A stretch of DNA of 64,000 bases from NCBI GenBank assembly GCA_965207045.1, contig OZ242261.1, positions 1,268,109 through 1,332,108 on the forward strand. Reading direction: 5' to 3'. The notes below the pieces were generated by a model. It was given only the letters and a program-made list of their open reading frames with translations. It was not told the origin of the DNA and did not search any database. Positions 34,701 to 47,105 of the stretch are shown here, in pieces (positions within the stretch are counted from its first letter, which is position 1; each line of letters begins with the position of its first letter). Source of the stretch: Anaplasmataceae bacterium (lineage in GTDB: Bacteria; Pseudomonadota; Alphaproteobacteria; Rickettsiales; Anaplasmataceae). The position numbers were made by a program, and so were the translations under genes.

Positions 34701-34935
34701 TAACTGCATCAATTTTTAATCGCTTTACATTAAAATGTAGCTGGATAATTTGTCAACTAAAAGTGGTGTCACAAGAAGCAGTAACAAAGTTAGGTTTTCG
34801 CAGAGCCAGTCACATTTTATATCAGTTATTGAAATTTTGGAAACTGGTTATTTAGTACACTAAATGATAGAAGTACATATAGCTACATATGTACGTATGC
34901 ACATCAAATTTGTTTATTGTTAAGTATAGTCACGT

Positions 34936-35073
34936 TTATGCCGGATACTTTGGTAGTAGAGTGCAAACATATCCAATCACTTGAGTACCTTTCAGTTTAA
35001 TTGAGTTAGATCCACTATCATACTTGAAATCATTTTTCCCACTTAGACTAGCACCAACGCTGAATAGATCACT
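34936..35073 (-). CDS. paralog A, exon 4 (138 nt, terminal)
   Basis: Acceptor ttttgtAG after a 50-nt intron. Encodes SDLFSVGASLSGKNDFKYDSGSNSIKLKGTQVIGYVCTLLPKYPA, then stop. The LLPKYPA end is shared with paralog B (C ends LLPEYPA). Confidence 0.65.
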   Translation of the reverse strand, partial: SDLFSVGASLSGKNDFKYDSGSNSIKLKGTQVIGYVCTLLPKYPA

Positions 35074-36409: not shown

Positions 36410-36460
36410 CTATAGATTTAAGAAGATAAACAACGACCTACGTAACTTTGTTTACTATAC

Positions 36461-37040
36461 TTTCTTTCATTGGAGCCATAGTAGTTATAAGTGGTCCATA
36501 CTCCCATTCATCAATGGCCTGTAATAGTGGACTAACTTCTCTGTCTAAAGGCTGAAACTGTTGATATTCTTCAGTGGTGACTAGCAATTGATCATAAATG
36601 CTCTTCCAGTTATCGCCATATTTTCGTTGGCACTCTATCTTTAGCGACACCTCCTTTTCTCCAAAATCTGCCTTTGCTTTAATATATTTCTTGTAAAGTT
36701 CAGTACGCTCCTTTGTTTCATAATTTATATAGAGCAAAGCCTTTGCATGTTCAAATGCAGGTTTCTGTGCTGGACCTGCTGCAGGTCCCTTTCCATGATA
36801 TAGCAGTTGCTCCCATTGGGTAGAAATTCTTGATCCCGTCAGAGTGTAATTGACATTACATGCTATGCAGGCATCCACCAGATCAAAGGTATTGTATGCC
36901 GCTCGTTTGGGAAGTGAAACCAGAGAATAGTCGGAGTAAAGGAGGTACTTCCCGATCGACAATACAAACATGCTGTCGTCGTTGTGAACGTACAGCTTGT
37001 TCAACTGCTGCCAGAGCAAGCAATGAGCGTAACTGTTCAT
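36461..37040 (-). CDS. paralog A, exon 1 (580 nt) of an unassigned 4-exon eukaryotic gene family
   Basis: Track ORF 36438-37046. ATG at 37038-37040 aligns with the starts of paralogs B and C. The GTATAG donor directly follows ...MAPMKE at the same codon phase (1) as in B and C. Confidence 0.75.
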
Positions 37041-37320
37041 GATCACTTTTTGTCAGTAGTTTCAGTATAGGTGCACCTCGGTATACGTAGTAGGCTAACG
37101 TGAACACTACAGCTCAGTCATATCGATTAACGGCGACCCAAAATTCCCGTAAATCTTTGTACTTCTCCGTATAGAGTATTGACTTATTAGACTCGGTAGA
37201 TGAATGGGATGCCTGGGAATCATTGAATTTGAAATGACGCGGTAGGTATATTATATGTACGTATGCTCAGGATCCGAGTCGCGCTCACTAGTGCGCATAC
37301 TGTGACATAGGTGAAGTACT

Positions 37321-37336
37321 GAATTTATTAGAATAC
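37321..37336. promoter_or_regulatory. conserved upstream motif GAATTTATTAGAATAC, copy upstream of paralog A (about 280 nt 5' of its ATG)
   Basis: An identical 15-16-mer also occurs at 47106-47120, 58011-58026 and 42533-42548. Three of the four copies sit 205-285 nt upstream of a paralog start codon. Confidence 0.5.
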
Positions 37337-38835: not shown

Positions 38836-40906
38836 GTATATGTATATGTATATGTATAATAATATTATATATGTACAAAGTATTTTGCATAGGAGGATCA
38901 AAGAGAAAAAAGTGCTATATTTTCCATCAAGTTGCTAAGTGGAAAATAAAGCACTCTTTGGAAAATATAGCACTGTTATGAAAACTATTTGCGTAATTTG
39001 TTATTGTTATTGGTAAAGATGTAAATGTGGCAAATTTCTGGAAAGCCTGGTTCACAATATGGTTCAAACGGATGCACGTTGTCCTTAGCATTAGTAGCAT
39101 CTGCGGAAGCTTGCGAAGTTGCTGGCAACCTAAACCATTCTGGATCGATGAAATCAAAGCCTTTGAATATCTTAAACGGTCTGTTGGTGGAGTTAATATT
39201 AAACTTGGGCTCACTATTTCCCTATCTTGTTTCTCTGCATCCGTAGACGAATCCATCCTTCGACCTGAACAACTGAATGCGACGACTGTGAACTTCTCTG
39301 TGCTAAACTAAACTTAATCTTGAGCAAAATGCTATATACTAGTTAAAGCATCACTCACACAGGTGCTGTATTTGTCTCTCGACACGCCCCCTTGTGCTGT
39401 ATTTTCCGTACACACTTGCAGTGGTGCTTTAACTAATACATATACTTAGCTTGTATGGCATAAGTGGACAAAAATTTGATTATCTATAACAATTTGATTT
39501 GTGGGCATTACAAAGTATAAAGCAACGAATTTTGTCAATCCATACTATGTACATATAATATAATATGTAGCTAGTCCATAATCGATTTGGTGCACATTTA
39601 TATTTTTCCATATAAAATCCTCACCAATATAGCTTGTACGGTTTTTGCTTGGCAATTTGGTTTCTCAATATAAATACTTAACTAAATTCATGTTATAGAA
39701 TTAGCTGATGAATTTTAGGTGTCCATAATTGTTAACTTATATATACTTAATAGCTAAGTTATATAAAGTGTTCCGCTACAGTCAGTGTTAGGAAAACATT
39801 GCAGTATTTGTAGCTTCTGTCTGGTGTTTACTGAAAGAATATATATCTTGTTCTATCATAGATCACTATGCTGGGTTCCATGTTCAGTTGTCAGAGCTGG
39901 TAAAACATGTTCTCTGTTCTAGTGGATGTAGCTAATGTCGTAATTGTAGCTACCTATCAGAATTGCCAGCAGCGGCTTACTAGACTTACCTTAATAATAA
40001 TACAAAATAATTCGTCACCAACAGCAAATCTCTGACAAATACTGCCTACCCACTCACAAGAGCAAATTATACATGCTTCAAATTCGTCAACAACAAATAT
40101 CTACTGTTACTCATTTTTCTCAAGAACAACAACTAACCATCAAACTGAACTCATTTAAACATAGCTTGTACTTTACTGAATCTACATATCTATATAATTA
40201 TGGCTCTATTTAGTTGGTGCATGAGTAGGCTTTTTCTGTGAAAGATGTACAAGGCTGTGGGATTGCTAGCTATTTAATTTTATTGTGTGAGTAGTACTTT
40301 ATTGTGTATTAAATGTCTACAAAAAGATGGCCAGAATGGCAAAACCTTGTGCGCACCATGGCTCCAAGTTATGCATATGGCTAGGGAGTAGCTATACAAA
40401 AAATAAATTTTCCCTTCATTTGTAAGCTATAATTATGTACCGTAGTCTGGAAATATTTCGTTGGTAAAAAATTTTTGTGGATGATGCTATCCACGAAAAT
40501 TAATCACACGAAAATATTTTCACACGAAGAAATTTAAACGAAAATGTAACACGTGTCAGTGCATGAAAAACTCACCATACATGAAACAACTAGAAACTGA
40601 TCATGGTATTCAATTATTTGATTTTCATATCAGTTATTGGAATTTTGGAATAACAGATAAATTAACTGGTTATTCAGTGTAAGGGTATATAACTAAAAAT
40701 TTAATTAAGCACATAATTATACCATATAGCTAGCTAGCTAGTGGATCGAAACTTTTTAATGGCTTCATTTTTGAAAAATGTTAGAAATATTCTTTCAAAA
40801 TTGCTAGCTAGCTATATAAACACTATTGTGATGTTTCAAACACTACACATATGCATGTCAGATCAAATTTCTAATTTCACGAATACATTATTTGTTGTTG
40901 TCACAT

Positions 40907-41010
40907 TTATGCTGGATACTTAGGTAGTAGAGAGCAAACATATCCAATCACTTGGATGCCTTTCAGTATAACTGAGTTACATAGATTTGGTATCACACCT
41001 GAAATCATAA
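40907..41010 (-). pseudogene. isolated relic of the terminal exon of a fourth paralog (D) of the gene family
   Basis: The minus strand reads ...PNLCNSVILKGIQVIGYVCSLLPKYPA, then stop, matching exon 4 of paralog A. The 3' flank (40570-40900) also matches the 3' flank of A (34570-34930). No exon 3-like sequence lies upstream. Confidence 0.6.
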
Positions 41011-42156
41011 CTTGCATTTGATATTGCCATTTGATTAGTAGACAGGATCATTGAAACAACCCAAGCTATATATCATTCTATCAGTCATGTAGCCATACTG
41101 TCATGTTCTGTGCTCATCATTAAGTACGGTAGTACTTAATAGTAGGGATCGACAAGGAATGTACGGAATGCAACATTTTCGCGCACCTATAAACAAGCCT
41201 CACAATAGTCTTTAGCCGAAAAACCAACTTAAACGCATTGGTACAGCAGTAATAATGCCTTACGTTTGTTAAACAAAGGCTAAACTCCATTATTTCGATC
41301 GATTATGAACTTTGAAATTTTTTAAAATCACGTGGATGTGGTCTGCCGGCCAGCCAGCCTGCCAGCCTGCCGGCCTGCCGTAAGACCCGGTTGCGCTAGG
41401 TGTAGGGCTCTAAAAATCACACAAAACAACAGATTATTGCGTCGGATTTACGAAACTGTTGTTCCGAAGATTATTTTCCTACTGCGCCATGGTGATTCCT
41501 TTGTCCTTCCTTACATTACTTTCTTCTATATCGATTGGAATGCGTAAACAACTTGCGTCATCACAACATTCCATACATGGTGCAAACAGGGAAGTTAATG
41601 CGCCTGCTGTTTTAAAGTGTATAAAGCGCTTCAGGAAGAGGTGTTTTAGTCTAGAACAAGATTTATAAAAGCTTGTTTAGAAGGTACTTCTACAATACAA
41701 TACTTAGTATTACGCATGCGCATACACATACGTGGATGGCACGCCATTAACACAAAGAAACTATATAAATAACATCAACTTACGCCACATCCACTGTATC
41801 ATTACAAATAGTTTAACGATGACTGTACTATATATAACCATTACAACTACTCGAACGAAGACTAGCTACATTAATTAGACTATATTCAACTGAAACGCGA
41901 ACTAGTCTTAGTGTCGCGCACGAAGCCAGACTAATTTACGCGCCAGCCGCTTATCGATGTTCCAATTACAAGCTTAACATCGACATGCAGCTGGACTAAT
42001 AGATTTGCTGTTTAAAGGGCGTGTAATTTGCTTTTACAGCTGCTTTGCCATACAAGCAGGTTGTTAACAAGCGCTTCTAAAAATCCATTATTACGTAAGC
42101 GCCTGTATAATACGCGCCTGGTTATTATAATCCTTATGCCCTATAAAAAGTAAACA

Positions 42157-42505
42157 AACAAGATTAATAAAAAATTAAAAATTTAAATGGTGAGTAGGGA
42201 TCGAAGGGATCGAATAGTGCTACAAAAAGTAAGGAAACAAGGAATAAGATTCTGGCACAAGTGAACACTAAAGATTCTGGCAAGAGATAATTTATAAAAG
42301 TTTAATCCCTACTTTTGGCTTGTTAGTCATTACGGTATGTTTGCCAAAAGTAGGGATTAAACTTTTATAAATTATCTCTTGCCAGAATCTTTAGTGTTCA
42401 CTTGTGCCAGAATCTTATTCCTTGTTTCCTTACTTTTTGTAGCACTATTCGATCCCTTCGATCCCTACTCACCATTTAAATTTTTAATTTTTTATTAATC
42501 TTGTT
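42157..42505. repeat. perfect long palindrome: two 163-bp inverted arms (42157-42319 and 42343-42505) around a 23-bp loop
   Basis: I reverse-complemented the right arm by hand and it is identical to the left arm over its full length. Confidence 0.85.
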
Positions 42506-42532
42506 CATATTGGAACATACCATAAAAGTACT

Positions 42533-42548
42533 GAATTTATTAGAATAC
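42533..42548. promoter_or_regulatory. orphan copy of the GAATTTATTAGAATAC upstream motif (no gene downstream)
   Basis: It is preceded by AAGTACT, as in the paralog A copy. It lies 28 nt from the palindrome and about 1.5 kb upstream of the exon 4 relic at 40.9 kb on the minus strand. Confidence 0.45.
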
Positions 42549-44158: not shown

Positions 44159-44225
44159 CTGCATGAAATCAGAAATATACAGCTTTATTATAATATAGCT
44201 AGCTAGTTTTACTTAACTTACATAC

Positions 44226-44678
44226 CAATAAAGCACTTTCAGCAGATGGATTAAATGTTTTCAAAGTATCGACTATTTCTTTACTGAAGCTTGAAGAAGT
44301 AATTGTTATATCTTTAGCCACAATCATCCGAGTAGAGAGTAAAGGGAATGATCCGTCATTGCTACTGTCAAGGACTCCTGTTGACCACGCACCTGGTCCT
44401 TCTCCAGGGATTCCCCAATTTTGTATCTTTAAAGCTGAAAGATCAATCCAGGGACGATTAATTTGCACAGAGCGCACTTTTAAATGAATTTTAACATCCT
44501 GAGTATCTCCAATATCTACTTTCTTTTCTTGCACACCTTCACCCCGAATATGAAGAAAATTGTCAGGGTTTAGTGTTGGTTGATCCACACCTAAGTCTAA
44601 AGGAGTATTTGGCTTGCCACCTAGCATTTGGTACAATCTACACTGGTTCTCATCATCATCCTGTGGATCCACAGTAAT
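44226..44678 (-). CDS. paralog B, exon 3 (453 nt)
   Basis: Track ORF 44199-44672. Acceptor tgtgtAG, donor GTATGT. Carries a 30-codon insertion relative to A (DLGVDQPTLNPDNFLHIRGEGVQEKKVDIGDTQ). Confidence 0.75.
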
Positions 44679-44953
44679 CTACACAAATTTTAATACAATT
44701 AATAATGACTTGTATGCACATACATACTTAGCTACATAGTGACAATATGTTTATTCTAGGATTTAAGATATGGAGGAATTAAGGATGTTATTTATCAGGA
44801 AAAAATGTTTATTCTAGGATTTAATATTTGGAGGAATTAAGGATGTTGGTTAGCAGGAAAAAAGGAAACACATTTACTCAAATAGCTATGACTTGGGGGT
44901 TTCAGGCCCTGAAATGAACACCATATGTATACCAGCTACACAGCATTGCATAC

Positions 44954-45090: not shown

Positions 45091-46322
45091 CTATTATAAT
45101 ACACACAACTTCAAAATCTAGTTTATGAACCTATGAATGTATTTCATCAATACTCTCCCTCAGGTACAGGTAGGACAATAGTGGGGATTTGATAACAAAC
45201 CTTTACCCATCCTAAGGTAACTGACGTAATTATACGTACTTGAATAATTCAAGGGGTTAGTCATTCACATAGTGCATAACCGTAGAACTATTGGCAACTG
45301 TGGTCAATATTTTTGATCAACAAAAATAATTACATAGCTACTTAAATGCACCTTGATCACTTATCACTTGATTATATTCTTGGCCAAAAAGCCTTATAAA
45401 AATAAAAATAGGTCTTCTGAGGTGCCTGATCACTCCCTTGCATCTTGATTCACTAAAAATTAACACCTTCATCCTATTTTGATCAGTTGCAAATGTGTCT
45501 ACAGGTATTGTGACTACCCCTGTATTTAATAGAAATCAATATGATCTCAAATCTCCTATGACCATAGCAGAGAATTTGATTTTTCTATGGTGCATAGGAT
45601 ATTTGATTACCTCTATACAATGGTATAGCCTCATGGCGGCACAGTTGCATGGGACCCACCTGTGCCTGCATGTGCGAGGGTATAGCAGAGTGATTATTTA
45701 TATCAAAATATTTTAATGGAATTTACTAAATTACTTCTTAAAGGGTTATTAGCTATAAGGTAAGAAAATGAGAAACATTAACCAATAGCTAACATACTTT
45801 CTCTGCCATTAAACTTTGAGGAAATTCATCTTTCATGCAGACAAAAGAGCAGTGACTAAACTTTGCTAAAATTTATCAAACCTAGCTGGTATCAATCAAC
45901 TCCTCTATTTAATGCCACCTGTTTTATTTATTGAATTGCTATGATAACTGAATAATAGTGCTTATAATTAGAATGCGACTAATGTATTGGATTTCCTATG
46001 GCAAAAGTTGTTAGCTACATACAACTGTTTATAGCAGGAGAGCAATCTATTGCCACTTGAAGATTTTTATTTGTTATAAGAAAGGGGAGGTATTAGCTAG
46101 CTACCTTGTAGCTATAGCTAATCCTGTTAATTGTTACAACATGTACACTTACTGGTTGAAAGCTATGGTTAAAAGTAGCAATGTTTTATAGCTATAAGGT
46201 TTAGCTACTTCCATAAACATTTTTATTAGCACACATATTTTTAAAAACCTCGATGTATGGAAAATTTGATAAATGTTTTGATATGTATAGCTATGTAGGT
46301 AGCTACATAATATATGATCTAC

Positions 46323-46902
46323 CTTGCTTCATTGGAGTCATGACAGTCGCAAGAGGTCCATCCACCCATTCATCAATGGCTTGTAATTGTGGACAAACTT
46401 CTCTGTCTAGAGCCTCAAACTGTTGATACTCTTCAGTGGCAGATAACAGTTTAGTATAAGCAATTTCCCAGTCATTGCCATATTTCTGGCGGCACTCTAT
46501 CTCCAAATCTACCTTCTTTCTTGCAACAGCAGATTTTACTTCAAGGTATTTCTTATACAGTTCAGTATATTCTCTAATTTCATAATTTTTGTAAAGCAAA
46601 GCCCTCGCCTTATCAAATGCAGGTTTTTGTTTTCCAGTTGCTTTAGGCCCCCTTCCATGATTAACCAGTTGTTCCCATCGGAGAGAAATTCTTGATCCTG
46701 TTGGTGCGTAGTTGACATTACATGCTACGCAGCTATCAACCAGTTCAAAAGTATTTAGTGCAGCTACTTTAGGAAATTCAGTCGGAGAATAATCGGCATA
46801 ATTGAGGTATTTTCCTACGGTCATTACAAACACGCTGTTGGTATCATTTCCATACATTCTGTTTAAAACCTGCCAGACCAAACGGTGAATTTCAATACCC
46901 AT
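46323..46902 (-). CDS. paralog B, exon 1 (580 nt)
   Basis: Track ORF 46303-46902, ATG start. Donor GTAGAT after ...MTPMKQ in phase 1. Confidence 0.75.
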
Positions 46903-47105
46903 CGTTTCCCGATCTTAATGCTTTTCTGCTGAGTTTAATAACTGACAGCGGGTCGATCCAAGACGACAGTTTTATCCAGCGGTTCCGGTACAGTTACTCA
47001 ATTGAATTTGTTTTATTTGATTAGCTTGGTAGCGAGGTGTGAAGTTATATACAACAAGAAGAATCCTATCAGTGACCACATGCGGTTTTTACGTCACGCT
47101 GGCTT

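Follow-up and report, generated by a model that had tools for sequence, protein, structure and literature searches.

Evidence that a 349-bp perfect palindrome is the probable 3' end of a Helitron-type element in an animal-derived contig tail

A 349-bp palindrome with perfectly matching arms raises a double question, namely whether such a structure is genuine and, if so, what made it. The palindrome lies in the window analyzed here, a stretch of 64,000 nucleotides that corresponds to bases 1268109-1332108 of a single 1.377-Mb contig. The original prediction, made from the window alone, described it as perfect, without coding capacity and without a target site duplication (TSD), and read it either as a very young structure (a foldback-type transposon, a break-repair product or a template-switch event) or as an artefact of library construction or amplification. 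A repeat search corroborated the description, with 163 of 163 nt (100%) of the arms pairing across a spacer of 23 nt, and the longest open reading frame in or around the element has at most 84 codons. The TSD is indeed absent at the palindrome, as expected for the Helitron-type class of elements to which we assign it below. The last two bases of the right arm (TT at 42504-42505) are host flank that pairs by chance with the AA ahead of the inner arm. When folded as single-stranded DNA, the palindrome forms a single unbroken 163-bp stem with a free energy of -190.5 kcal/mol, compared with -30.7 +/- 4.4 kcal/mol for shuffled sequences (z = -36).

Searching the assembly for other copies of the arm sequence, as had been proposed with the original prediction, revealed two further palindromic sites in the tail of the same contig. 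The palindrome of copy B (genome 1355383-1355682) carries one mismatch in 138 arm positions and belongs to an element of 1,068 bp, and that of copy C (genome 1364964-1365260) has arms that are about 90-92% complementary. The similarity between these two copies and the one in the window, hereafter copy A, is not confined to the palindrome: it runs 760-1,040 bp to the left of it, up to a sharp boundary shared by the three, and on the other side goes no further than the outer limit of the right arm. A GC-rich block in the body is near-invariant among the three copies, which are elsewhere about 72% identical. We therefore read the palindrome as the 3' end of a longer, asymmetric, Helitron-type element inserted in host DNA (probability of roughly 0.85). 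The features of this element and of its surroundings are given in Table 1.

Table 1. Features of copy A, of its flanks and of related loci. A slash in the sequences of the empty sites marks the insertion point.
Feature	Position	Strand	Remarks
Copy A, complete non-autonomous Helitron-like element, 1,387 bp	41117..42503	+	Ends TCATTAAGTACGG ... ATTAATCTTG
5' terminal sequence (LTS), TCATTAAGTACGGTAGTACTTAATAGTAGGGATCGAC	41117..41155	+	Conserved in 24 non-redundant 5' ends
GC-rich body block, GCCTGCC repeats then GCCGTAAGACCCGGTTGCGCTAGGTGTAGGGCTC	41440..41520	+	From the alignment of A, B and C
Left (inner) palindrome arm	42157..42319	+	Opens with AA + CAAG, the latter being the reverse complement of the terminal tetramer
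Loop/spacer, 23 nt, TTGTTAGTCATTACGGTATGTTT	42320..42342	+	'Flip' orientation
Right (outer) palindrome arm	42343..42505	+	CTTG terminus at 42500-42503
Relic of the gene family's terminal exon	40900..41008	-	82.6% identical to 34929-35033 (paralog A)
23-nt upstream motif of the gene family	42526..42548	.	Identical to 37314-37336; 22 nt past the 3' end of the element
Empty site	L064 vs L009		...GGTGATAT/TGTAATAGG... (GATAT/TGTAA); T/T; flanks 98% identical
Empty site	L069 vs L024		...GAATAA/TTTATA...; A/T
Empty site	L071 vs L029		...GATA/TAATTA...; A/T
RepHel element, apparently intact	L059:8057-15218		Open reading frames of 1,214 aa (DUF6570 + Helitron_like_N), 632 aa (PIF1) and 546 aa (ubiquitin C-terminal hydrolase)

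Dispersed copies were sought by scanning 185,579 prokaryote genomes with a 19-mer conserved in copies A, B and C. The scan matched 47 loci, at 46 of which the element is present, so that the family comprises at least 46 loci; nearly all of the 47 fall in four records labelled as MAGs, namely a Nitrosopumilaceae archaeon (CBDBMG01, contigs CBDBMG010000001-3), a Poribacteria bacterium (CAXXTN01, contig CAXXTN010000004), an Acidobacteriota bacterium (OZ246889) and a Binatia bacterium (OZ246887). Ten of the copies found elsewhere are full-length and 80-84% identical to copy B, and 5'-truncated copies also occur. Copy A aligns from end to end with L045:584-1971, over 1,388 nt, with 77% identity overall and 90.6% in the palindrome, which is thus better conserved than the body. 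A scan of the JGI metagenomes with a conserved 25-mer gave no match. The palindrome is thus an inherited feature of the family, present in every copy and in at least five assemblies.

Several peculiarities of individual copies were also recorded. In copy C (genome 1363516-1365780) the 3' 735 bp, together with about 1 kb of neighboring DNA, are inverted relative to its own 5' 348 bp, and the inverted block is flanked by direct repeats of 75-80 nt (1363864-1363938 and 1365701-1365780, 80% identical). The first 24 nt or so of the element (TATCATTAAGTACGATAGTACT) are found as two to three tandem units at some 5' ends, as in copy B (genome 1354574-1354639), in L045:552-600 and in L049. Copies are frequently placed in (TA)n microsatellites (L048:5010-6460, L015:5051-7216, L040:2255 and L013:7665), and neighboring pairs occur head-to-head in L048 and in tandem, 200 bp apart, in L015.

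Up to about 1.29 Mb, the contig of the window looks bacterial, with 32% G+C and a long-ORF coverage of 0.7-0.87. Over its last ~85 kb, which is all the host sequence available beside copy A in its own contig, the ORF coverage drops from 0.38 to 0.21 and then to 0.10, and remnants of LINE reverse transcriptases and of MITEs appear together with microsatellites. The palindrome sits in animal host DNA, not in that of the bacterium, and the junction between the two in the contig is either an assembly misjoin or a real integration. The four MAG-labelled records (loci L007-L053) likewise contain eukaryote-type DNA, amounting to hundreds of kb, in which there are Helitrons, RepHel genes and ORFs of retroelements; this is host contamination or the product of chimeric contigs, like the contig of the window. 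The only pointer to the host is the taxonomy of the contaminated MAGs (Poribacteria, Nitrosopumilaceae, Binatia and Acidobacteriota), whose members are typical sponge symbionts, so that a sponge is probable.

The ends of copy A were set by aligning copies A, B and C with the ten full-length copies from other assemblies. All the aligned full-length copies start with TCATTAAGTA(C/T)GGTAGTACTTAATAGTAGGG and the family finishes with ...TTTTTTATCATTCTAG. The initial TC is the one required of canonical Helitrons (HLE1); the base ahead of it is A in 22 of the 24 non-redundant 5' ends and T in the other two, and the empty site of L064 and L009 sets the boundary exactly ahead of this dinucleotide. On the 3' side, 34 of the 40 non-redundant ends have CTAG as their last four bases, in agreement with the CTRR of HLE1, and T is the next base in 36 of 40. 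Copy A, which is preceded by a host A (41116) and followed by a host T (42504), deviates from CTRR in having CTTG, a tetramer shared with the members of its subfamily L045, L030 and L052. The extreme ends of the family (TCATTAAGTAC... and ...ATCATTCTAG) do not match when one of them is inverted, which means that terminal inverted repeats are lacking; the sole inverted match between the 5' region and the 3' arm is a subterminal stretch of 11-12 nt, AGTAGGGATTGG. The LTS includes AGTAGGGAT, present again in inverted form in the 3' arm.

To define the target site, both flanks of 18 insertions were joined and searched for in five genomes, and paralogous uninterrupted sites were found. Three such empty sites (Table 1) align without a gap and without an extra or lost base at the junction, which indicates precise insertion with no TSD. 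These sites belong to the insertions of relatives; for copy A itself, which is flanked by A and T, no empty site was found. A reading of the ends as a duplication of TA was considered and rejected, given the unequal flanking dinucleotides of several copies and the single A and T at the empty sites. Canonical Helitrons are characterized by TC and CTRR ends, no terminal inverted repeats and insertion between A and T without TSD (PMC4778049, PMC11417382). With its TC...CTAG ends, its insertion between A (once T) and T without TSD and its lack of terminal inverted repeats, the family therefore conforms to the definition of HLE1 given in these works.

The host DNA was searched for RepHel genes and for a possible autonomous partner. 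Two of the four records (G001 and G002) gave matches to the Pfam domain Helitron_like_N (PF14214) in their host-type contigs. At L059, domains of Helitron_like_N (1.8e-17) and of PIF1 helicase (2.1e-26) are found in intact ORFs, after which comes a UCH ORF, and further RepHel remnants are carried by L060, L061 and L062. The 5' end of the family is absent within about 10 kb of these four RepHel loci, and no autonomous element sharing both ends of the family was found in this host DNA. At L059 and L061 a 3' part of the family lies 2-3 kb downstream of the RepHel gene on the same strand, a proximity that is only suggestive of a partnership. The only well-delimited RepHel element, represented by the copies at L059 and L063 (the latter on the reverse strand, 96% identical over 5.8 kb), carries DUF6570, a marker of the HLE2 group (PMC11417382). 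Both copies end at the outer edge of another palindrome, unrelated in sequence and 361 bp long (L059:17027-17387), whose main arms of 153 nt are 98% complementary and which is also found alone elsewhere. The Helitron-like elements of this host lineage may thus tend to carry giant palindromes at their 3' ends.

The hairpin of the family has arms of 130-170 nt and a stem that runs through the terminal tetramer, as a consequence of which the terminus is repeated, in inverted form, at the start of the inner arm (ACTAGAATGAT...). In the main subfamily the consensus forms a perfect palindrome, at whose inner edge the terminal CTAG appears as its reverse complement. Across copies, the complementarity of the arms ranges from 80 to 100%, with a second perfect copy in L052 (129-nt arms) and 99.4% in L045 (169 nt). 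This symmetry has been kept while the sequence changed: relative to the main consensus arm, that of copy A has 15 substitutions and two indels (of 3 and of 7 nt), and relative to copy B it has 11 substitutions and several indels, all of them mirrored in the other arm. The palindrome is older than the divergence of the subfamilies and not the very young structure that was one of the original readings, and the perfect arms of copy A reflect either a recent insertion or a recent homogenization. In most copies the arms diverge from the consensus by 0.6-3% and the body by 2.5-10%, a difference that fits selection on the master copies or conversion between the arms.

Among the nine best copies, a CpG position is the only arm mismatch common to several of them. 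It corresponds to positions 104-105 of the consensus arm (GGGACGAG), where C and T are mismatched in L007, L023, L029, L044, L048 and L015. The shared mismatch may reflect decay of the CpG, which would imply that the host methylates cytosine.

Between the arms lies a conserved, asymmetric loop of 15-27 nt, which occurs in both orientations relative to the body. The two orientations were represented by 13 and 8 copies in alignment A1, and by 15 and 8 when the inner flank was used to orient an independent set. The same variant can be found both ways, as illustrated by the loop of L010 (CTCACTTCATTCAGTAGGTTTG), whose exact reverse complement is present in L023 and L048. Within the subfamily of copy A, the loop is in the flip orientation in A and in L014, L016 and L042, its nearest flip relatives, and in the flop orientation in L045 and L050, whose loop is the reverse complement of that in L014, L016 and L042; copies B and C appear to be opposite in this respect too. 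On a maximum-likelihood tree built from body and arms with the loop excluded, the orientations require five changes, compared with a mean of 6.8 for shuffled labels, and the well-supported branches alone require at least two flips. Judged from this pattern in the sequences, loop flipping is recurrent and nearly independent of kinship. In the two pairs of copies that were duplicated after insertion (L008/L024 and L014/L016) the orientation is the same within each pair. The titles and abstracts of the best-ranked literature matches contain no description of such flip and flop loops in Helitrons.

By analogy with Helraiser, whose 3' hairpin was shown experimentally to act as a transposition terminator (PMC4778049), the hairpin of the family would most likely act as a pause signal for the RepHel helicase and thereby allow recognition and cleavage of the 3' end. 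The co-variation of the arms and the flips of the loop suggest that the arms physically interact. Their symmetry could be kept by selection for the stem in transposing copies, by the use of one arm to copy or correct the other (through template switching or conversion), or by both, and the continuing identity of the arms may owe something to template switching between them.

The alternative that fares best assigns the hairpin a more active role, in which the giant terminal palindrome acts like a parvoviral inverted terminal repeat. In this rolling-hairpin scheme the 3' arm, including CTAG, would fold onto the inner arm and thus place an HUH nuclease site at each base of the stem, on both strands; terminal resolution or hairpin transfer would then rebuild one arm from the other in each transposition cycle and leave the loop inverted in about half of the cases. 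In a milder version, the second strand of the transposon circle would be synthesized from the hairpin, which would act as a single-strand origin. The replication protein of parvoviruses is itself an HUH nuclease fused to a helicase. Both loop orientations in comparable numbers, their near-random distribution on the loop-free tree, the single loop variant found in both orientations, the perfect consensus palindrome with its inverted terminal CTAG and the constant orientation in the duplicate pairs would all be in agreement with this scheme. However, quasi-palindrome template switching and arm-to-arm gene conversion are known to perfect inverted repeats and can invert the spacer, so that recombination or template switching, as in any long inverted repeat, would flip the loop and homogenize the arms with no need for new chemistry. 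Moreover, the tie between flipping and transposition is weak, with only two post-insertion duplicate pairs, and at least two flips are all that the well-supported branches force. Helraiser, in addition, moves through covalently closed circles, without a free 3' end (PMC4778049). Considering these points together, we regard the rolling-hairpin scheme as unlikely, and the Helitron-type 3' end with a putative terminator hairpin as the reading to retain.

That the palindrome is an artefact of library construction, amplification or assembly, such as a snap-back chimera or arms equalized by polishing, is very improbable. The contig is admittedly heterogeneous, with bacterial and animal DNA joined, and polishing with reads placed on the wrong arm could slightly raise the identity of the arms. 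Nevertheless, two other copies in the contig and over 20 copies from four further, independent assemblies show this very architecture, with arm ends, loop position and inner flank constant across copies and arm identity graded from 80 to 100%, and a snap-back event yields neither a conserved asymmetric loop of 15-27 nt nor an endpoint at a transposon terminus. The occurrence of the feature in every copy and in at least five assemblies equally contradicts a break-repair or template-switch product formed at this locus.

There is a comparably slim chance that the unit is a foldback element or MITE with two long terminal inverted repeats, mobilized by a DDE transposase, and that the sequence to its left is a shared insertion context. 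The isolated 349-bp unit does resemble a foldback element, and palindrome-only fragments exist. On the other hand, the 5' ~760-1,040 bp are co-linear with the palindrome at unrelated sites and share a sharp 5' boundary, the inner edge always leads into the same body while the outer edge alone meets host DNA, a TSD is absent at the three empty sites, and the palindrome-only matches that were inspected look like truncated, interrupted or reverse-oriented copies. Of the proposed foldback-type transposon, the transposon origin therefore stands, given the dispersed family, and the foldback type does not, the element being asymmetric, with TC...CTAG ends and a target between A and T; the many dispersed arm copies that were anticipated for an ordinary foldback family do exist, but without TSDs.

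We give next to no credence to a hairpin-RNA or microRNA gene, with the palindrome conserved for small-RNA processing of its transcript, for which the stem conserved through compensatory changes and the sub-threshold matches to plant miRNA precursors in a permissive Rfam search (e.g., MIR8562, with 111 bits against a gathering score of 211) could be invoked, since these matches are all below the gathering score, fall in unrelated plant families and on both strands, as a generic long hairpin would, the search of the window at gathering thresholds returned a bacterial tRNA only, and the stem stops at a transposon terminus and is present in dozens of copies. Transposon hairpins often feed siRNA pathways, as a consequence and not as the reason for their existence.

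The palindrome had also been said to sit exactly where a member of a local gene family seems to have been lost, and this is positionally correct, since a relic of the terminal exon and the upstream motif of the family flank the element (Table 1). These two landmarks are 1,517 nt apart, 1,387 nt of which are the element, and in paralog A they are separated by about 2.3 kb of gene; the element comes within 108 nt of the deletion, which measures 2.2 kb, at its 5' end and within 22 nt at its 3' end. The insertion of a Helitron by itself deletes no DNA. The gene copy could have been lost when two former copies recombined, or when the palindrome broke and a deletion followed, or the position of the element may be a coincidence. 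The tandem gene family concerned (36438-37052, 46303-46914 and 44199-44678, minus strand) has no Pfam domain, and in a protein search its relatives were ENA metagenome proteins only, with 53-74% identity, for example on a 727-kb contig of ERZ25069580. Just upstream of the last-exon region of paralog B, at 44741-44856, there are two tandem units of 58 nt that are 88% identical.

Taken as the end of a transposon, the perfect palindrome is accounted for as neither an artefact nor a fresh rearrangement. The family amounts to a natural experiment on the 3' hairpin of Helitrons, whose role is so far only partly understood, and if flipping were coupled to transposition it would link the chemistry of Helitrons to the hairpin-transfer replication of other HUH-nuclease replicons. 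In practical terms, the family is a sensitive marker for host-DNA contamination in public MAGs from similar holobionts, and long perfect palindromes such as that of copy A are potential fragile sites, here beside a decayed gene copy.

Comparison with known systems places these features in context. Foldback (FB) elements and long-TIR MITEs share with the family a long, near-perfect inverted repeat with a short spacer, the non-coding character and the many copies, but here the inverted repeat is at one end only of an asymmetric element of 1.1-1.4 kb, and there is no TSD. With quasi-palindrome correction and arm-to-arm conversion, no selection would be needed to account for the co-varying arms and the flipped loops; these are general repair or replication processes, and they bear on the upkeep of the palindrome and not on its origin. 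A terminal palindrome with an asymmetric tip in two inverted forms is also known from parvoviruses (the inverted terminal repeats of AAV) and from poxvirus telomeres, which are linear viral genomes with demonstrated hairpin transfer, whereas here the palindrome belongs to an integrated transposon and the likeness is one of sequence pattern only.

Within Helitrons, the family resembles HLE2 (Helitron2/Helentron) in its stem-loop at the extreme 3' end, in the short inverted match between the 5' region and the 3' arm, in the one empty site of three that lies between T and T, and in the presence of DUF6570 RepHel genes in the same host DNA, one of which ends in the different, 361-bp palindrome. 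It departs from HLE2 in lacking the inverted repeats of 12-16 nt at the extreme termini by which that group is recognized, in having a 5' flank that is predominantly A and not T, and in its TC...CTAG termini. With HLE1 (Helibat/Helraiser and HelibatN) it shares the TC/CTAG termini, the lack of terminal inverted repeats, precise TSD-free insertion between A and T, a 3' palindrome, plentiful non-coding derivatives and 5'-truncated copies. The canonical HLE1 hairpin is short and lies about 10-12 nt upstream of the 3' terminus, that of Helraiser being a palindrome of 19 bp located 11 nt upstream of the end (PMC4778049). In contrast, the hairpin of the family overlaps the terminus, its arms are about ten times the usual length and far longer than any in the Helitron papers cited here, the stem runs through the terminus, the inner arm carries an inverted copy of it, and the loop occurs in both orientations. 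A giant, self-symmetric and flipping 3' hairpin is thus what this family adds to a known class of Helitrons.
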